Part shown: positions 1 through 35,653 of the stretch, one piece after another | How the letters are laid out: each line of letters opens with the position of its first letter | Position numbering within the stretch: the first letter of the stretch is position 1 | Source of the DNA: Escherichia coli | GTDB lineage: Bacteria > Pseudomonadota > Gammaproteobacteria > Enterobacterales > Enterobacteriaceae | DNA: 64,000 nt | Direction: 5' to 3' (one strand) | NCBI RefSeq assembly: GCF_003334335.1 | Contig: NZ_QOWQ01000007.1 | Program-made: the position numbers and the translations under genes | The notes under the pieces: generated by a model | Database searches by the model: none | The model's input: the letters and a program-made list of their open reading frames with translations, nothing else | Told to the model about the DNA's origin: nothing

Positions 1-572
1 TCGGCCTGCTGGCAGAAGCGTTCCTCGAAAAAAATCCCGGCGCGAAGATCATCCACGATCCACGTCTCTCCTGGAATACCGTTGATGTGGTGACTGCCGC
101 TGGCGGCACGCCGGTGATGTCGAAAACCGGACACGCCTTTATTAAAGAACGTATGCGCAAGGAAGACGCCATCTACGGTGGCGAAATGAGCGCCCACCAT
201 TACTTCCGTGATTTCGCTTACTGCGACAGCGGCATGATCCCGTGGCTGCTGGTCGCCGAACTGGTGTGCCTGAAAGATAAAACGCTGGGCGAACTGGTAC
301 GCGACCGGATGGCGGCGTTTCCGGCAAGCGGTGAGATCAACAGCAAACTGGCGCAACCCGTTGAGGCGATTAACCGCGTGGAACAGCATTTTAGCCGTGA
401 GGCGCTGGCGGTGGATCGCACCGATGGCATCAGCATGACCTTTGCCGACTGGCGCTTTAACCTGCGCACCTCCAATACCGAACCGGTGGTGCGCCTGAAT
501 GTGGAATCGCGCGGTGATGTGCCGCTGATGGAAGCGCGAACGCGAACTCTGCTGACGTTGCTGAACGAGTAA
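1..572 (+). CDS. cpsG: Phosphomannomutase (colanic-acid cluster), 3' portion only; 5' end lies upstream of the window
   Basis: ORF 87..572 translation matches my recollection of the CpsG/ManB C-terminus (...[26 protein letters not shown]); reading frame is open back to the window edge; followed by wcaJ as in the wca cluster. Confidence 0.85.
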
Positions 573-576
573 TGTC

Positions 577-690
577 ATTACTTTCCCCCTCACCCTGACG
601 CTCTACTGCCTGCGGAGAGAAGTGAGCACGGAACTTTCTTCTCCCCCTCGCCCCTTTGGGGAGAGGGCCGGGGTGAGGGGCGAGGCGACA
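577..690. repeat. GC-rich palindromic intergenic element (BoxC/RSA-like); probable hairpin between cpsG and wcaJ
   Basis: Inverted repeats ccccctcaccc (585-595) / ggggtgagggg (670-680) and ccccctcgcccc / ggggcgagg read directly; family name is from memory. Confidence 0.45.
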
Positions 691-707
691 ATAGAACAGG
701 AACAACG

Positions 708-2102
708 ATGACAAATCTAAAAAAGCGCGAGCGAGCGAAAACCAATGCATCGTTAATCTCTATGGTGCAACGCTTTTCAGATATCACCATCATGTTTGCC
801 GGACTATGGCTGGTTTGCGAAGTCAGCGGACTGTCATTCCTCTACATGCACCTGTTGGTGGCGCTGATTACGCTGGTGGTGTTCCAGATGCTGGGCGGCA
901 TCACCGATTTTTATCGCTCATGGCGCGGTGTTCGGGCAGCGACAGAATTTGCCCTGTTGCTACAAAACTGGACCTTAAGCGTGATTTTCAGCGCCGGACT
1001 GGTGGCGTTCAACAATGATTTCGACACGCAACTGAAAATCTGGCTGGCGTGGTATGGGCTGACCAGTATCGGACTGGTGGTTTGCCGTTCATGTATTCGT
1101 ATTGGGGCGGGCTGGCTGCGTAATCATGGCTATAACAAGCGCATGGTCGCCGTAGCGGGGGATTTAGCCGCCGGACAAATGCTGATGGAGAGCTTCCGTA
1201 ATCAGCCGTGGTTAGGGTTTGAAGTGGTGGGGGTTTACCACGACCCGAAACCGGGCGGCGTTTCTAACGACTGGGCGGGCAATCTTCAACAGCTGGTCGA
1301 GGACGCGAAAGCGGGCAAGATTCATAACGTCTATATCGCGATGCAAATGTGCGACGGCGCGCGAGTGAAAAAACTGGTCCATCAATTGGCGGACACCACC
1401 TGTTCGGTGTTGCTGATCCCCGATGTCTTTACCTTCAACATTCTCCATTCACGTCTTGAAGAGATGAACGGCGTTCCGGTGGTGCCGCTTTACGACACGC
1501 CGCTTTCCGGGGTTAACCGCCTGCTCAAACGTGCGGAAGACATTGTGCTGGCGACGCTTATTCTGCTGCTGATCTCCCCGGTGCTGTGCTGTATTGCGCT
1601 GGCGGTGAAACTCAGTTCACCAGGGCCGGTTATTTTCCGCCAGACTCGCTATGGCATGGATGGCAAACCGATCAAAGTGTGGAAGTTCCGTTCGATGAAA
1701 GTGATGGAGAACGACAAAGTGGTGACTCAGGCGACGCAGAACGATCCGCGCGTCACCAAAGTGGGGAACTTTCTGCGCCGCACCTCGCTGGATGAACTGC
1801 CGCAGTTTATCAATGTGCTGACCGGGGGGATGTCGATTGTGGGGCCACGTCCGCACGCAGTAGCGCATAACGAACAGTATCGCCAGCTCATTGAAGGCTA
1901 CATGCTGCGCCATAAAGTGAAACCGGGCATTACTGGCTGGGCGCAGATTAACGGCTGGCGCGGCGAAACCGACACGCTGGAGAAAATGGAAAAACGCGTC
2001 GAGTTCGACCTTGAGTACATCCGCGAATGGAGCGTCTGGTTCGATATCAAAATCGTTTTCCTGACGGTGTTCAAAGGTTTCGTTAACAAAGCGGCATATT
2101 GA
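708..2102 (+). CDS. wcaJ: UDP-glucose:undecaprenyl-phosphate glucose-1-phosphate transferase (colanic acid initiating transferase)
   Basis: 464 aa ORF; C-terminal sugar-transferase domain (PRPHAVAHNEQY...KPGITGWAQING); position after cpsG. Confidence 0.93.
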   Translation: MTNLKKRERAKTNASLISMVQRFSDITIMFAGLWLVCEVSGLSFLYMHLLVALITLVVFQMLGGITDFYRSWRGVRAATEFALLLQNWTLSVIFSAGLVAFNNDFDTQLKIWLAWYGLTSIGLVVCRSCIRIGAGWLRNHGYNKRMVAVAGDLAAGQMLMESFRNQPWLGFEVVGVYHDPKPGGVSNDWAGNLQQLVEDAKAGKIHNVYIAMQMCDGARVKKLVHQLADTTCSVLLIPDVFTFNILHSRLEEMNGVPVVPLYDTPLSGVNRLLKRAEDIVLATLILLLISPVLCCIALAVKLSSPGPVIFRQTRYGMDGKPIKVWKFRSMKVMENDKVVTQATQNDPRVTKVGNFLRRTSLDELPQFINVLTGGMSIVGPRPHAVAHNEQYRQLIEGYMLRHKVKPGITGWAQINGWRGETDTLEKMEKRVEFDLEYIREWSVWFDIKIVFLTVFKGFVNKAAY

Positions 2103-2103
2103 T

Positions 2104-3582
2104 ATGAGCTTACGTGAAAAAACCATCAGCGGCGCGAAGTGGTCGGCGATTGCCACGGTGATCATCATCGGCCTCGGGCTGGTGCAGATGACCGTGCTGG
2201 CGCGGATTATCGACAACCACCAGTTCGGCCTGCTGACTGTGTCGCTGGTGATTATCGCGCTGGCAGATACGCTTTCTGACTTTGGTATCGCTAACTCGAT
2301 TATTCAGCGAAAAGAAATCAGTCACCTTGAACTCACCACGTTGTACTGGCTGAACGTCGGGCTGGGGATCGTGGTGTGCGTGGCGGTGTTTTTGTTGAGT
2401 GATCTCATCGGCGACGTGCTGAATAACCCGGACCTGGCACCGTTGATTAAAACATTGTCGCTGGCGTTTGTGGTGATCCCCCACGGGCAACAGTTCCGCG
2501 CGTTGATGCAGAAGGAGCTGGAGTTCAACAAAATCGGCATGATCGAAACCAGCGCGGTACTGGCGGGCTTCACTTTTACGGTGGTTAGCGCCCATTTCTG
2601 GCCGCTGGCGATGACCGCGATCCTCGGTTATCTGGTCAATAGTGCGGTAAGAACGCTGCTGTTTGGCTACTTTGGTCGCAAAATTTATCGCCCCGGTCTG
2701 CATTTCTCGCTGGCGTCGGTGGCACCGAACTTACGCTTTGGTGCCTGGCTGACGGCGGACAGCATCATCAACTATCTCAATACCAACCTTTCAACGCTGG
2801 TGCTGGCGCGTATTCTCGGCGCGGGCGTGGCAGGGGGATACAACCTGGCGTACAACGTGGCCGTTGTGCCACCGATGAAGCTGAACCCAATCATCACCCG
2901 CGTGTTGTTTCCGGCATTCGCCAAAATTCAGGACGATACCGAAAAGCTGCGCGTTAACTTCTACAAGCTGCTGTCGGTAGTGGGGATTATCAACTTTCCG
3001 GCGCTGCTGGGGCTGATGGTGGTGTCGAATAACTTTGTACCGCTGGTCTTTGGTGAGAAGTGGAACAGCATTATTCCGGTGCTGCAATTGCTGTGTGTGG
3101 TGGGTCTGCTGCGTTCCGTAGGTAACCCGATTGGTTCGCTGCTGATGGCGAAAGCGCGGGTCGATATCAGCTTTAAATTCAACGTATTCAAAACCTTTCT
3201 GTTTATTCCGGCGATTGTTATTGGTGGGCAGATGGCGGGCGCAATTGGCGTCACGCTCGGCTTCCTGTTGGTACAGATTATCAACACCATTCTGAGTTAC
3301 TTCGTGATGATTAAACCGGTTCTTGGTTCCAGTTATCGCCAGTACATCCTGAGTTTGTGGCTGCCGTTTTATCTCTCGTTGCCGACGCTGGTGGTCAGTT
3401 ATGCGCTGGGCATTGTGCTGAAAGGGCAACTGGCGCTGGGGATGCTGCTGGCGGTGCAAATAGCCGCGGGCGTGCTGGCGTTTGTGGTGATGATTGTGCT
3501 GTCGCGCCATCCGCTGGTGGTGGAAGTGAAGCGTCAGTTTTGTCGCAGCGAAAAAATGAAAATGCTTTTACGGGCGGGGTGA
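2104..3582 (+). CDS. wzxC: Colanic acid repeat-unit flippase (Wzx family)
   Basis: 492 aa polytopic membrane protein immediately after wcaJ; length and synteny match K-12 wzxC. Confidence 0.92.
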   Translation: MSLREKTISGAKWSAIATVIIIGLGLVQMTVLARIIDNHQFGLLTVSLVIIALADTLSDFGIANSIIQRKEISHLELTTLYWLNVGLGIVVCVAVFLLSDLIGDVLNNPDLAPLIKTLSLAFVVIPHGQQFRALMQKELEFNKIGMIETSAVLAGFTFTVVSAHFWPLAMTAILGYLVNSAVRTLLFGYFGRKIYRPGLHFSLASVAPNLRFGAWLTADSIINYLNTNLSTLVLARILGAGVAGGYNLAYNVAVVPPMKLNPIITRVLFPAFAKIQDDTEKLRVNFYKLLSVVGIINFPALLGLMVVSNNFVPLVFGEKWNSIIPVLQLLCVVGLLRSVGNPIGSLLMAKARVDISFKFNVFKTFLFIPAIVIGGQMAGAIGVTLGFLLVQIINTILSYFVMIKPVLGSSYRQYILSLWLPFYLSLPTLVVSYALGIVLKGQLALGMLLAVQIAAGVLAFVVMIVLSRHPLVVEVKRQFCRSEKMKMLLRAG

Positions 3583-3610
3583 GTTGCTGTTTTCGGTTCC
3601 GACAACGGTT

Positions 3611-3797
3611 GCCGGATGCGGCGTAAAACGCCTTATCCATCCTACGGTTCCGTGCTCGGGACCTGTAGGCCTGATAAGACGCGTCAGCGTCGCATCAGGC
3701 ACTGAATGCCGGATGCGGCGTGAACGCCTTATCCGGCCTACGGTTCTGTGCTCGGGTCTTGTAGGCCTGATAAGACGCGTCAGCGTCGCATCAGGCA
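3611..3797. repeat. Tandem REP/BIME elements (two ~95 bp units)
   Basis: gccggatgcggcg...cttatcc...gtaggcctgataagacgcgtcagcgtcgcatcaggc occurs twice in tandem, classic REP palindromes; causes an artificial 5' extension of the wcaK ORF in the six-frame track. Confidence 0.85.
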
Positions 3798-3856
3798 AAA
3801 AGCGGCAACGAACAAAACAAACACAGCCCACCTGGCATCAAATTTATGAGGAAAAA

Positions 3857-5137
3857 ATGAAATTACTTATTCTGGGCAACCACACTTGCGGCAATCGTGG
3901 CGACAGCGCCATCCTGCGCGGCTTACTTGATGCCATCAACATCCTCAATCCACACGCCGAAGTGGACGTGATGAGCCGCTATCCGGTCAGTTCTTCCTGG
4001 CTGCTCAACCGCCCGGTAATGGGCGATCCGCTGTTCCTGCAAATGAAACAACACAACAGCGCGGCGGGCGTTGTCGGGCGCGTTAAAAAAGTCCTCCGTC
4101 GCCGCTACCAGCATCAGGTATTGCTCTCACGCGTCACCGACACTGGCAAGCTGCGTAATATCGCCATCGCCCAGGGATTCACCGACTTCGTGCGCCTGCT
4201 GTCAGATTACGACGCCATTATTCAGGTCGGCGGATCGTTTTTTGTCGATCTCTACGGCGTGCCGCAGTTTGAACATGCACTTTGCACGTTTATGGCGAAA
4301 AAGCCGCTGTTTATGATTGGTCACAGCGTCGGTCCCTTCCAGGATGAGCAATTTAACCAACTGGCGAACTACGTTTTTGGTCACTGCGACGCGCTGATCC
4401 TGCGCGAATCGGTCAGCCTTGATCTGATGAAACGCAGCAATATCACTACCGCAAAAGTGGAACATGGCGTCGATACCGCGTGGCTGGTCGATCACCACAC
4501 AGAAGAATTCACCGCCAGCTATGCCGTTCAACATTGGCTGGACGTTGCCGCACAACAGAAAACGGTGGCAATTACCCTGCGCGAACTGGCACCGTTCGAC
4601 AAACGTCTCGGCACCACTCAACAAGCGTATGAAAAAGCCTTTGCCGGGGTGGTCAATCGCATTCTCGACGAAGGCTATCAGGTTATTGCGCTCTCCACCT
4701 GTACGGGCATCGACAGCTATAATAAAGACGACCGCATGGTGGCGCTCAATCTTCGCCAGCACATCAGCGATCCTGCCCGTTACCACGTGGTGATGGATGA
4801 ACTCAACGATCTGGAAATGGGCAAAATTCTCGGAGCCTGTCAACTCACCGTCGGTACGCGTCTGCACTCAGCCATTATCTCGATGAATTTCTCCACTCCG
4901 GCAATTGCCATCAACTACGAACATAAATCCGCCGGGATTATGCAGCAGCTGGGGCTGCCAGAGATGGCGATCGATATCCGTCATTTATTAGATGGCAGCC
5001 TGCAAGCGATGGTTGCGGATACCTTAGGCCAGCTTCCGGCGCTGAACGCACGACTTAGCGAAGCCGTCAGTCGCGAACGTCAGACGGGAATGCAGATGGT
5101 GCAATCTGTGCTTGAGCGCATCGGGGAGGTGAAATGA
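3857..5137 (+). CDS. wcaK: Colanic acid biosynthesis pyruvyl transferase
   Basis: ATG at 3857 (MKLLILGNHTCGNRGDSA...) downstream of the REP elements gives 426 aa; polysaccharide pyruvyl transferase-like; synteny. Confidence 0.9.
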   Translation: MKLLILGNHTCGNRGDSAILRGLLDAINILNPHAEVDVMSRYPVSSSWLLNRPVMGDPLFLQMKQHNSAAGVVGRVKKVLRRRYQHQVLLSRVTDTGKLRNIAIAQGFTDFVRLLSDYDAIIQVGGSFFVDLYGVPQFEHALCTFMAKKPLFMIGHSVGPFQDEQFNQLANYVFGHCDALILRESVSLDLMKRSNITTAKVEHGVDTAWLVDHHTEEFTASYAVQHWLDVAAQQKTVAITLRELAPFDKRLGTTQQAYEKAFAGVVNRILDEGYQVIALSTCTGIDSYNKDDRMVALNLRQHISDPARYHVVMDELNDLEMGKILGACQLTVGTRLHSAIISMNFSTPAIAINYEHKSAGIMQQLGLPEMAIDIRHLLDGSLQAMVADTLGQLPALNARLSEAVSRERQTGMQMVQSVLERIGEVK

Positions 5138-6354
5138 AGGTCGGTTTCTTCTTATTGAAATTTCCGCTGTCGTCAGAAACCTTCGTTCTTAACCAAATCA
5201 CTGCGTTTATTGATATGGGCTTTGAAGTGGAGATTGTCGCGTTGCAAAAAGGCGATACAGAGAACACCCACGCGGCTTGGACGAAATACAACCTTGCTGC
5301 CAGAACCCGCTGGTTACAGGACGAACCTACGGGCAAAGTGGCGAAACTGCGCCACCGCGCCAGCCAGACCTTACGCGGCATTCATCGTAAAAATACCTGG
5401 CAGGCGCTCAACCTCAAACGCTATGGTGCCGAGTCGCGGAACCTGATTTTGTCTGCTATTTGCGGCCAGGTCGCAACCCCGTTTCATGCCGATGTGTTCA
5501 TCGCTCATTTTGGACCTGCGGGGGTAACCGCAGCAAAACTACGGGAACTGGGTGTCATTCGCGGCAAAATTGCCACCATTTTCCACGGCATTGATATCTC
5601 CAGTCGGGAAGTGCTCAACCGCTACACCCCCGAATATCAACAACTGTTTCGCCGTGGCGACCTGATGCTACCGATAAGCGATCTGTGGGCCGGAAGGCTG
5701 CAAAAAATGGGCTGCCCGAGGGAAAAAATCGCCGTATCGCGTATGGGTGTGGACATGACGCGCTTTAGCCCGCGTCCGGTGAAAGCGCCTGCAACGCCGC
5801 TGGAAATCATTTCCGTCGCACGCTTAACCGAGAAAAAAGGCCTGCATGTGGCGATCGAAGCCTGCCGTCAGTTGAAAGAGCAGGGTGTGGCATTTCGCTA
5901 TCGCATCCTCGGCATTGGCCCGTGGGAACGACGCTTGCGCACGCTCATCGAACAATATCAACTGGAAGATGTGGTGGAGATGCCGGGCTTTAAACCGAGC
6001 CATGAAGTGAAGGCGATGCTCGACGACGCGGATGTCTTCCTCCTGCCATCGGTAACGGGCGCGGACGGTGATATGGAAGGTATTCCGGTGGCGCTGATGG
6101 AAGCGATGGCGGTCGGCATTCCGGTGGTTTCTACTCTGCATAGCGGAATACCAGAGCTGGTCGAGGCCGATAAATCCGGCTGGCTGGTGCCTGAGAACGA
6201 TGCTCGCGCACTGGCGCAACGACTGGCGGCGTTTAGCCAACTGGACACTGACGAACTGGCTCCGGTTATCAAACGTGCTCGCGAAAAAGTCGAACACGAT
6301 TTTAACCAGCAGGTGATCAATCGAGAACTCGCCAGCTTGCTGCAAGCTTTATAG
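5134..6354 (+). CDS. wcaL: Colanic acid glycosyltransferase (GT4 family)
   Basis: 406 aa; ATGA start/stop overlap with wcaK; GT4-type C-terminal motifs ([20 protein letters not shown]). Confidence 0.92.
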
Positions 6355-6364
6355 AGGAGAACGC

Positions 6365-7759
6365 ATGCCATTTAAAACACTCTCCCGACGCACCTTCCTG
6401 ACGGCAAGCTCGGCGCTTGCCTTCCTCCATACCCCTTTCGCTCGCGCACTTCCCGCCCGACAAAGCGTTAACATTAACGACTACAACCCACACGACTGGA
6501 TCGCCTCATTTAAACAAGCCTTCAGCGAAGGGCGAACGGTCGTCGTGCCTGCCGGATTGGTTTGTGACAATATCAACACCGGCATCTTCATTCCTCCCGG
6601 CAAAACGTTACACATCCTTGGAAGCCTGCGCGGCAATGGCAGAGGGCGATTTGTCTTACAGGACGGCAGCCAGGTGACAGGGGAGGAGGGCGGCAGTATG
6701 CATAACATCACCCTGGATGTGCGTGGCTCTGACTGCACCATCAAAGGGCTGACGATGAGCGGCTTTGGTCCGGTAACGCAGATTTATATCGGCGGCAAAA
6801 ACAAACGAGTAATGCGTAACCTCTCCATCGATAACCTGACCGTTAGCCACGCTAATTACGCCATCTTACGCCAGGGATTTCATAACCAGATTATCGGTGC
6901 CAACATCACCAACTGTAAATTTAGTGATTTACAGGGCGACGCCATTGAATGGAACGTGGCGATTAACGACCGTGATATTTTGATATCTGACCATGTCATC
7001 GAGCGCATCAACTGTACCAACGGCAAAATCAACTGGGGTATCGGCATAGGCCTTGCGGGAAGTACCTACGATAATAACTACCCGGAAGACCAGGCAGTGA
7101 AAAACTTTGTCGTGGCGAATATCACGGGATCGGATTGTCGGCAGTTGATCCATGTTGAAAATGGTAAACATTTTGTTATTCGTAATATCAAAGCCCGCAA
7201 TATCACGCCGGATTTCAGTAAGAAAGCGGGCATTGATAACGCCACGGTCGCTATTTACGGTTGTGACAATTTCGTGATTGATAATATTGAAATGATTAAT
7301 AGCGCCGGGATGTTAATCGGGTATGGAGTAATTACAGGCAAATATCTCTCGATACCGCAAAATTTCCGAGTGAATAATATTCAACTGGATAATACCCACC
7401 TTGCTTACAAATTGCGCGGTATCCAAATCTCTGCCGGGAATGCCGTCTCCTTTGTGGCACTGACTAACATTGAGGTGAAGCGTGCGTCGCTGGAGTTACA
7501 CAACAAACCGCAACATCTTTTTATGCGTAATATCAAAGTGATGCAGGAATCCTCTGTTGGACCCGCATTGAGCATGAACTTTGACATGCGCAAAGACGTT
7601 CGCGGCGTCTTTATGGCGAAAAAAGAAACCCTGCTATCTCTTGCAAATGTTCATGCGGTGAATGAGAAAGGACAAAGCTCCGTCGATATCGATAGGGTTA
7701 ATCACCATATTGTTAATGTGGAAAAGATTAACTTTAGATTGCCGGAACGGAGAGAGTAG
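6365..7759 (+). CDS. wcaM: Colanic acid biosynthesis protein WcaM (secreted beta-helix-like protein)
   Basis: 464 aa with an N-terminal signal-like segment ([21 protein letters not shown]); last gene of the wca cluster by synteny. Confidence 0.9.
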
Positions 7760-7933
7760 ATTTGCGACCATTCCTGGAAAAATGGAGCCATACTTAGGAA
7801 CAATGCTACTGCAATCCACAACGAAGCGGCGTAACATCACAAGTAATTCAGTAATCAATTCAGGGTAATTGATGCTGGCGAAAAAAATCGAACAAGCTAT
7901 AATTCAGCAACCATTTTACAGGTGGATGAAATA

Positions 7934-8827
7934 ATGACGAATTTAAAAGCAGTTATTCCTGTAGCGGGTCTTGGGATGCATATGTTGCCTGCCACTAAGG
8001 CGATTCCCAAAGAGATGCTACCGATCGTCGACAAGCCAATGATTCAGTACATTGTTGACGAGATTGTGGCTGCAGGGATCAAAGAAATCCTCCTGGTAAC
8101 TCACGCGTCCAAGAACGCGGTCGAAAACCACTTCGACACCTCTTATGAATTAGAATCTCTTCTTGAACTGCGCGTGAAGCGTCAGCTGCTGGCGGAAGTG
8201 CAGTCCATCTGTCCGCCGGGCGTGACCATTATGAACGTGCGTCAGGGCGAACCTTTAGGTTTAGGTCACTCCATTTTGTGTGCGCGGCCTGCCATTGGTG
8301 ACAATCCATTTGTCGTGGTGCTGCCAGACGTTGTGATCGACGACGCCAGCGCCGACCCGCTGCGCTACAACCTTGCTGCCATGATTGCACGATTCAACGA
8401 AACGGGTCGTAGCCAGGTGCTGGCAAAACGTATGCCGGGTGACCTCTCTGAATACTCGGTCATCCAGACCAAAGAACCACTGGACCGTGAAGGTAAAGTC
8501 AGCCGCATTGTTGAATTTATCGAAAAACCGGATCAGCCGCAGACGTTGGACTCAGACATCATGGCCGTTGGTCGCTATGTGCTTTCTGCCGATATTTGGC
8601 CGGAACTTGAACGCACTCAGCCTGGTGCATGGGGGCGTATTCAGCTGACTGATGCCATCGCTGAACTGGCGAAAAAACAGTCCGTTGATGCCATGCTGAT
8701 GACAGGTGACAGCTACGACTGCGGTAAAAAAATGGGCTATATGCAGGCGTTCGTGAAGTATGGGCTGCGCAACCTCAAAGAAGGGGCGAAGTTCCGTAAA
8801 GGCATTGAGAAGCTGTTAAGCGAATAA
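7934..8827 (+). CDS. galF: UTP-glucose-1-phosphate uridylyltransferase paralogue GalF
   Basis: [39 protein letters not shown]; ATG at 7934 gives 297 aa; classic left flank of O-antigen clusters. Confidence 0.95.
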
Positions 8828-9084: not shown

Positions 9085-9124
9085 GCAGTGCTCTGGTAGC
9101 TGTAAAGCCAGGGGCGGTAGCGTG
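9085..9124 (+). promoter_or_regulatory. JUMPstart element with ops site (RfaH-dependent antitermination signal) upstream of the O-antigen operon
   Basis: ggcggtagcgtg (ops consensus GGCGGTAGnnTG) at 9113-9124 within the galF-wzx leader. Confidence 0.65.
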
Positions 9125-26102: not shown

Positions 26103-28180
<2,078 letters not shown>

Positions 28181-32524: not shown

Positions 32525-32571
32525 TTTGTTATTCCTCTTTAAACCTGTCTGAACCGTTATCAACCGCGCAA

Positions 32572-32610
32572 TAAAAAAGCCCCCGGAAGGTGATCTTCCG
32601 GGGGCTTTCT
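32572..32610 (-). terminator. his attenuator (leader terminator hairpin)
   Basis: On the minus strand gcccccggaag...cttccgggggc hairpin followed by a U-run, between hisL and hisG. Confidence 0.85.
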
Positions 32611-32669
32611 CATGCGTTCATGCACCACTGGAAGATCTGAATGTCTTCCAGCACACATCGCCTGAAAGA

Positions 32670-32720
32670 CTAGTCAGGATGATGGTGATGATGGTGGTGT
32701 TTAAATTGAACGCGTGTCAT
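32670..32720 (-). CDS. hisL: his operon leader peptide (MTRVQFKHHHHHHHPD)
   Basis: Reverse complement of 32670-32720 reads ATG ACA CGC GTT CAA TTT AAA CAC CAC CAT CAT CAC CAT CAT CCT GAC TAG; seven consecutive His codons. Confidence 0.95.
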   Translation of the reverse strand: MTRVQFKHHHHHHHPD

Positions 32721-35387: not shown

Positions 35388-35653
35388 AGAAAAATTATTA
35401 TGACAAGCCTCTCATTCTCTTGTCATTTCCCCCCCATTTAGGCACAATGCGCCGCTGTCAAAAAATGACTAAAAACCGACGTTTCATCAGCGTCGGTTAT
35501 TTTTTGCTTCAAACCAATCATTCATACCAAGAGGCCGGGCTTCGTACCGGATAGATATTTACTAAAAATCGACAGTTGTTGTCGCTGAGGAATCCAAAAA
35601 AATGGGGCAATTTTTTGCTTACGCGACGGTTATCACCGTAAAGGAGAATGACC

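Follow-up and report, generated by a model that had tools for sequence, protein, structure and literature searches.

Two GC-rich palindromic repeats interrupt the distal part of the Escherichia coli colanic-acid (wca/cps) operon, which occupies the plus strand in the first 8 kb of a 64,000-nt stretch of DNA (RefSeq contig NZ_QOWQ01000007.1; hereafter the window, meaning the stretch at its full length). In this study, both repeats were analyzed, one located between cpsG and wcaJ and the other between wzxC and wcaK. The first is a head-to-head pair of BoxC/PIT/TMECO motifs, and the second is a cluster of four REPs of the BIME-2 type. We assign a probability of roughly 0.8 to the reading that both elements are copies of known enterobacterial repeats which settled in permissive gaps of the operon, and thus represent passenger DNA with at most modest effects on the RNA level. 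Passenger status is supported because both elements are missing in many strains and genera; the operon can do without either of them. Both repeat families have long been known, and REP variation between wcaK and wzxC has already been published.

The operon has been described as a single 21-gene unit under JUMPStart-RfaH antitermination (PMC9976346). The genes bordering the two gaps were named by 100%-identical RefSeq matches and by alignment with MG1655; wcaL and wcaM follow wcaK within the first 8 kb:

570-572, plus strand: stop codon at the 3′ end of cpsG
708-2102, plus strand: wcaJ
2104-3582, plus strand: wzxC
3857-5137, plus strand: wcaK

In a preliminary description of the window, GC-rich palindromic repeats of two different families had been placed in these gaps. 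Both are present at these places, far beyond chance expectation according to shuffles, folds and unit scans. The family labels also proved right, BoxC by a match to the TMECO consensus and REP/BIME by matches to Y and Z2 units. The RefSeq feature table of MG1655 contains no repeat features in either gap. When Rfam was scanned at E ≤ 1 over positions 1-8000 and at the gathering threshold over the whole window, nothing was found in the BoxC gap, and the REP-derived naRNA4 was the sole model matching the two elements.

Identity and anatomy of the two elements

The intergenic region between wzxC and wcaK is composed as follows:

3583-3856, plus strand: wzxC-wcaK intergenic region, 274 nt, 98% identical to MG1655 (gap of 275 nt)
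3610-3797, plus strand: BIME-2-type cluster of two tandem 96-nt units, from Tandem Repeats Finder (TRF) and direct repeats
3611-3645, plus strand: REP of the Y type, its loop longer by one A and with CCAT for CCGG, starting 28 nt past the wzxC stop codon
3665-3700, minus strand: inverted REP of the Z2 type, exact 36-nt match, corresponding to the Z2 unit of REP325
3708-3741, plus strand: REP of the Y type, exact 34-nt match
3761-3796, minus strand: inverted REP of the Z2 type, exact 36-nt match
3602-3607 (ACAACG) and 3805-3810 (GCAACG), plus strand: short direct repeat bracketing the BIME

The units are about 35 nt long and carry the conserved GTAG/CTAC end of REPs, and none of the four would be expected by chance; they can be aligned with the Y and Z2 units of REP325. 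They are arranged as Y(+), 19 nt, Z2(−), 7 nt, Y(+), 19 nt, Z2(−). For 3610-3797, TRF reported a period of 96 nt, 1.9 copies and 92% matches, in agreement with the two tandem units described before, and the direct-repeat family D1 is 93% identical. The predicted RNA fold of the whole gap reaches −136.6 kcal/mol (z = −10.3). BIME-1 elements (RIP/RIB) are defined by a Z1 unit and an IHF-binding L motif (Gilson, Bachellier). The REP unit scan retained no Z1 match, and the IHF consensus WATCAANNNNTTR was not found within 3583-3856; because of this absence of the IHF consensus, an identity as BIME-1/RIP was rejected.

The naRNA4 model (RF02564; gathering score 59.5), which derives from REP325, matched 3668-3738 with a score of 79.7 bits for the minus and 55.4 bits for the plus strand. 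Since the cluster is inverted relative to transcription when compared with REP325, the match above the threshold is antisense; it is a generic REP match and no evidence for a naRNA gene. REP325/naRNA4 itself, located between yjdM and yjdN and consisting of Y-l-Z2 repeats (PMC4550694), resembles the cluster of the window in its alternating inverted Y and Z2 units, its tandem repeats of about 100 nt and its position between two co-transcribed genes. It differs in having six units instead of two, a head-to-head linker of 13 nt instead of 7 nt and the opposite orientation to transcription, and in that the operon of the window is RfaH-dependent. The cluster between wzxC and wcaK of MG1655 is orthologous, with four REPs and 98% identity to the window.

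One consequence of the cluster concerns gene prediction:

3584-3856, plus strand: spurious 5′ extension of the wcaK open reading frame (ORF) through the REPs, from TTG 3584 to the true ATG 3857

As already suspected in the preliminary description, the REP region thereby fuses artificially with the wcaK frame, the ORF listing containing a TTG-start ORF (3584-5137) that reads through the REPs. The true wcaK start is ATG 3857, as in RefSeq and MG1655, and it stays the same whether a strain carries 0 to 10 REPs or an unrelated gap. On these grounds we rejected an N-terminal extension of WcaK, and annotators should regard the ORF of 517 amino acids at 3584-5137 as an artefact.

The intergenic region between cpsG and wcaJ contains the second repeat family:

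573-707, plus strand: cpsG-wcaJ intergenic region, 135-nt 'long' allele (flanking coding sequences named by identical RefSeq matches)
585-622, minus strand: decayed inverted partner, type-A-like TMECO (alignment and shuffles)
623-644, plus strand: spacer of the head-to-head composite, TGAGCACGGAACTTTCTTCTCC
626-681, plus strand: dispersed BoxC core of 56 nt, pyrimidine-rich leader plus TMECO (distant blastn)
645-680, plus strand: intact BoxC/PIT/TMECO motif of 36 nt (consensus match; same as MG1655 TMECO no. 3)

The TMECO consensus CCCTCNCCC-N3-6-GGGNGAGGG-N3-GGGNGAGGG, consisting of three blocks able to fold back twice, is matched exactly at 645-679, with no match in 100 shuffles of the window. 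The motif at 645-680 reads CCCTCGCCCCTTTGGGGAGAGGGCCGGGGTGAGGGG with the block layout CCCTCGCCCC-TTT-GGGGAGAGGG-CCG-GGGTGAGGGG; it belongs to type B (CCG loop) and has one mismatched triplet. It equals MG1655 TMECO no. 3, likewise an intergenic type-B copy with one mismatched triplet, letter for letter over 36 nt (PMC4666352, Table 1), as checked in the yagA-yagE gap of K-12 (locus L005). By distant blastn of the cpsG-wcaJ gap against 5,426 complete E. coli genomes, the 56-nt core (query positions 54-109) was located at 28,083 non-orthologous places, spread over 4,611 genomes with a median of 6 places each, all of them intergenic and with no annotation beneath. Nothing longer than this core recurred elsewhere in these genomes. 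RSA repeats measure about 150 bp and occur in few copies per genome, and the label 'RSA-like', also given to the element in the preliminary description, is not supported. The BoxC unit has been described as 56 bp in length with 22-32 copies (PMC2267715).

The arms of an inverted repeat lie at 586-604 and 662-680. In the partner at 585-622, blocks 1 and 2 have degenerated and the third (CCCCTCACCC) is intact. Its reverse complement, though degenerate, aligns best with the type-A TMECO (AGAGCGTCAGGGTGAGGGG versus AGAGGGTTAGGGTGAGGGG; 0 of 2000 shuffles as good), with a TCA loop where type A has TTA. As the left half is a decayed inverted copy of the motif, the gap holds a head-to-head pair of an A-like and a B copy, an arrangement described at five K-12 sites (Holder et al. 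2015, PMC4666352). One of the MG1655 pairs, no. 17+18 between lldD and trmL, also combines a type-B copy head-to-head with a type-A copy, the partner in the window being A-like; there, however, the spacer measures 59 nt, compared with about 22 nt in the window. In contrast to the lldD-trmL pair, the pair in the window has a decayed partner in which the third block alone is intact. A related spacer (GCACSGAGC...TCTTTTC) is present in Enterobacter (L006), in Lelliottia (L016) and in yagA-yagE of K-12.

The site in the window is not among the 23 TMECO copies of K-12, which has no BoxC between cpsG and wcaJ, and a gene-name search of the supplements of PMC4666352 gave no entry for cpsG, wcaJ or wcaK. 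Polymorphism between strains is common to the published TMECO loci and the window; the pair in the window is placed inside a long operon, at a position where most strains have a simple hairpin. The RNA of the cpsG-wcaJ gap is predicted to fold with −59 kcal/mol (z = −3.8), and a Watson-Crick DNA fold by itself is unremarkable (z = −1.25).

Variation of the two gaps between strains and genera

Comparison of alleles, proposed earlier as a check of repeat copy number between strains, revealed variation in both gaps. Between wzxC and wcaK, the sampled E. coli strains carry 0, 2, 4, 6, 8 or 10 REPs, or BoxC instead:

72 nt: no REP (L034)
145 nt: one Y and a truncated Z2
179 nt: two REPs (O157:H7)
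274 nt: four REPs
371 nt: six REPs
468 nt: eight REPs (ST131)
564-565 nt: ten REPs (enterotoxigenic E. coli H10407)
161 nt, unrelated sequence: reverse BoxC (strain MLI121; L037, 301-461)

Variation between two and four REPs at wcaK-wzxC was reported by Iguchi et al. (2011), who also tied REP insertions and deletions (indels) to recombination junctions (PMC3158064); compared with their study, the allele series is widened here to 0-10 REPs, and the BoxC-bearing alternative gap of MLI121 is added. In other genera, the gap mostly measures 19-45 nt and is free of repeats, the exceptions being Lelliottia, Enterobacter and RIT714 with BoxC pairs, Huaxiibacter with one BoxC-like motif and Salmonella arizonae with one REP-like palindrome. 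Because the gap is short and repeat-free in most other genera, the REP cluster is regarded as an insertion into a permissive gap and not as an ancestral part of the operon.

The same gap has been colonised by either repeat family, namely by REP in the window and by BoxC in MLI121 and at the loci L016, L021, L025 and L029. The REP-free allele (L034) reads ...TTCCGGCAACGAAC... and contains one copy of the direct repeat that brackets the BIME in the window. This repeat could be a slippage deletion junction or a target-site-like duplication.

Between cpsG and wcaJ, the long 135-nt allele was found in about 510 of the 5,426 complete E. coli genomes (~9%, or ~10.5% of the 4,850 genomes with the locus). 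The remaining sampled strains, including K-12, O157:H7 and uropathogenic E. coli 536, have a gap of 54 nt with a single hairpin (CCCTTACCC-N6-GGGTAAGGG), and this short allele is almost identical in Citrobacter koseri, C. sedlakii, C. amalonaticus and S. arizonae. As it is shared with Citrobacter and S. arizonae, the short allele is probably the ancestral state in that clade and the long one derived within Escherichia, judged with an outgroup set of 28 species representatives that has no E. albertii, E. fergusonii or S. enterica enterica among them. The head-to-head BoxC pair takes the place of the short GC-rich hairpin of most E. coli, Citrobacter and Salmonella. In four strains, the long allele shows 0-1 difference in 135 nt, and the flanks of the same strains differ by 1.6-3.7%. 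The flanks in the window are closest to those of MG1655 (L001), a short-allele strain, with no single-nucleotide polymorphism in 177-576 and 695-1056. Since the near-invariant long allele sits on divergent flanks and the window has MG1655-like flanks, the alleles have been shuffled across haplotypes by recombination. This fits both the recombination known to occur near the O-antigen region and the instability that has been reported for TMECO loci.

Seen from the window, identity to K-12 extends over about 400 nt to the left and to the right of the gap, with differing gap alleles in between (135 versus 54 nt), and beyond these identical tracts the two sequences differ by about 3%. E. coli E69 (L012), a member of a divergent lineage, has a 127-nt variant of the long allele, in which an 8-nt deletion between GAGG repeats shortens the third TMECO block; the triplex motif is thereby lost and the hairpins are kept.

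This polymorphism bears on an alternative that we consider possible, albeit tentative, namely a role of the repeats on the DNA level. The BIME-2 would serve as a putative gyrase/Pol I/HU site and BoxC as a transient triplex, and both repeats would be recombination or indel hotspots that help the adjacent O-antigen and colanic-acid region to be exchanged. Both gaps are indeed highly polymorphic, with long and short alleles shuffled across flanking haplotypes, and at wcaK-wzxC the junctions of recombination fall together with REP indels (PMC3158064). TMECO loci show more rearrangement than gaps used as controls, and sites that occur in pairs collapse into hairpins, which has been called the 'palindrome effect' (PMC4666352); polymorphism of this kind may, however, merely reflect the instability of repeats and bring no benefit to the cell. 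The triplex-capable G-rich strand of the intact TMECO, as read from the sequence, is the non-template strand of the operon. Oligonucleotides of the same type form an intrastrand purine-motif triplex in vitro, but no triplex was detected in vivo by dimethyl sulfate footprinting (PMC4666352). For REP325, the model of nucleoid compaction with HU was not reproduced (preprint 10.64898/2026.03.23.713779).

A further alternative arises from the structures found directly upstream of wcaJ. For a survey of hairpins, 30 cpsG-wcaJ gaps were compared, comprising 28 Enterobacteriaceae species representatives (loci L006-L033, one of them E. coli E69), K-12 and the window. L013 was left out of the count due to a misassigned gap boundary (BoxC-like blocks are present), and the hairpins of L023 and L024 were read from the sequence. 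All 29 usable gaps contain a GC-rich hairpin, mostly with z between −2 and −8, that follows immediately on cpsG and precedes the conserved AACAGGAACAACG-ATG of wcaJ by 15-30 nt. The stems are mutually unrelated (CCCTTACCC/GGGTAAGGG, CCCTCTCCC/GGGAGAGGG, GCCCTCTC/GAGAGGGC, CTCTTATCCAGCC/GGCTGGATAAGAG and CCAGGGCCGAC/GTCGGCCCTGG), or else BoxC pairs are present.

From the recurrence of a hairpin with stems unrelated in sequence, a conserved stem-loop slot might be postulated, in which the hairpin is selected as a putative RNA element (decay barrier or processing site) and the BoxC pair is one of several interchangeable fillers. The stem-loop would then mark the division between the sugar-nucleotide genes and the segment made up of wcaJ, wzxC and what follows them. 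We regard this explanation as rather doubtful. It gains from the contrast with the wzxC-wcaK gap, which is often only about 20 nt long and unstructured, but the stems are not alignable between gaps, and many of the simple hairpins resemble inner or outer arms of BoxC as remnants, which would point to possible decay of an old element. Moreover, some genera rich in TM motifs have BoxC in both gaps, and the expression evidence at the cpsG-wcaJ junction amounts to a log2 drop of 0.33 in K-12. The recurrence of hairpins could result from selection for a stem-loop or, equally, from repeated decay of BoxC pairs by the palindrome effect. That sequence turnover in Enterobacteriaceae preserves a GC-rich stem-loop at 15-30 nt before wcaJ, with BoxC pairs repeatedly occupying the slot or collapsing into it, is a speculative extension which we consider unlikely; the E. 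coli long allele, near-invariant and with flanks identical to K-12 over about 400 nt on each side, fits such a picture.

Possible effects on the transcript

Under the passenger reading, both elements would be co-transcribed inside the RfaH-antiterminated operon and would fold as very stable RNA hairpins. Neither of them is an intrinsic terminator, because the hairpins lack U-tracts: a promoter and terminator scan found nothing in either element and no U-tract terminator, and the last REP is followed by AAAAAG. In MG1655 under Rcs induction by colicin M, array log2 ratios of 5.10 for cpsB, 5.15 for cpsG, 4.82 for wcaJ, 4.45 for wzxC, 4.45 for wcaK, 3.63 for wcaL and 2.71 for wcaM were obtained (PMC3599342). 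Induction thus declines gradually along the operon without a step across the four REPs, which speaks against a marked effect when judged by the refuting condition named in the preliminary description, uniform transcript coverage. The REPs in malE-malF and hisJ-hisQ (Newbury 1987 and Stern 1988, as cited in PMC3158064 and PMC6061677) are likewise intercistronic and located 3′ of a stop codon; these act as stabilisers, whereas the array data at wzxC-wcaK show no differential expression across the BIME. In addition, antitermination of the operon by RfaH should blunt Rho-dependent attenuation, and PIT/BoxC elements have neither promoter nor terminator activity, as summarised in PMC4666352.

According to a preprint (10.64898/2026.03.23.713779), REP325 stabilises the yjdM mRNA upstream of it, and the attenuation of yjdN that it causes depends in part on Rho; REP hairpins have been found to shield Rho-dependent 3′ ends from exonucleases (PMC6061677). 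Since REP325 acts as both stabiliser and attenuator and REPs protect Rho-terminated 3′ ends, a modest, context-dependent effect on RNA is plausible. At most, the elements of the window might form modest barriers to 3′-to-5′ exonucleases or weak Rho-dependent attenuators, by which the transcript ratios of cpsG to wcaJ and of wzxC to wcaK would be tuned slightly and differently from strain to strain. The main demonstrable effect would be the polymorphism of the locus itself, with gain and loss of units by slippage or recombination and exchange of alleles by recombination.

In the preliminary description, the elements had been proposed as stabilisers or partial terminators that set the expression of the distal wca genes. 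By analogy with REP325 this proposal finds weak support, and it is countered by the missing U-tracts, the equal induction of wzxC and wcaK, RfaH antitermination and the absence of the elements in many strains and genera. In its strong form, an active regulatory punctuation in which the repeats stabilise upstream segments to a substantial degree, cause partial termination, or do both, and thereby determine distal wca stoichiometry, it appears unlikely to us. The predicted RNA structures are very stable at both elements, and the last part of the 274-nt untranslated gap is rich in A and C and poor in G (C/G = 1.4), so that Rho might load there, but Rho should be suppressed by RfaH. REP325 is likewise built of Y and Z2 units and changes the expression of both of its neighbours, and REPs protect Rho-dependent 3′ ends; the BIME of the window, however, has the opposite orientation to transcription, MG1655 shows no step in induction between wzxC and wcaK, and no promoter or terminator activity is recorded for PIT/BoxC in the summary mentioned above. 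Moreover, strains that share these genes may lack the elements or carry them in different copy numbers. REPs reportedly lower translation only when located within about 15 nt of a stop codon, a finding ascribed to Liang et al. from 2015, and the first REP here lies 28 nt from that of wzxC. Intrinsic terminators at operon boundaries, or the REP region as N-terminal extension of WcaK, are highly improbable, as the strong hairpins and the open frame 3584-5137 stand against the lack of a U-tract at either structure, a scan without any terminator-like site and the co-induction of downstream genes, by which the intrinsic-terminator reading is refuted.

Several points weigh against the elements being mere passengers. 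The near-invariance of the long allele on divergent flanks could mean constraint instead of youth, and the hairpin in 29 of 29 usable gaps suggests that structure before wcaJ is selected and not neutral. The array values are fold-inductions at gene resolution in K-12 and not absolute coverage, and K-12 does not have the BoxC pair. Finally, REP325, of the same Y/Z2 type, shifts the ratio of upstream to downstream expression about 35-fold in its own operon (preprint 10.64898/2026.03.23.713779), so that by analogy the REP cluster in the wca operon may have a larger effect than assumed here.

Neighbouring features and implications

Besides the two elements, Rfam matches further downstream in the window were recorded:

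9086-9124, plus strand: JUMPstart RNA element (RF01707, 60 bits), about 1.3 kb past wcaM
32571-32694, minus strand: histidine operon leader (RF00514, 131.6 bits)
35433-35507, plus strand: match to the small RNA STnc240 (RF02074, 68.2 bits)
57409-57484, minus strand: tRNA-Asn (GTT) gene
59817-59892, minus strand: tRNA-Asn (GTT) gene
61641-61716, plus strand: tRNA-Asn (GTT) gene

The JUMPstart element occupies the position expected for the start of the O-antigen gene cluster. The three tRNA-Asn genes have equal Rfam scores and lie within 4.3 kb.

For annotators, the two gaps are length-polymorphic markers in the recombination-prone region of colanic-acid and O-antigen genes. If the repeats tune wca expression, the number of REPs (0 to 10) or the BoxC allele could shift colanic-acid output between strains, and such shifts would need no change of a coding sequence or promoter. 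The hairpin before wcaJ offers a small, testable lead on how the balance of transcript segments is set in a long polysaccharide operon. If a stem-loop is indeed maintained there across Enterobacteriaceae, it would be a functional RNA element tuning the sugar-nucleotide genes against wcaJ, wzxC and the later genes, and BoxC elements may arise at pre-existing hairpins or be copied into them.

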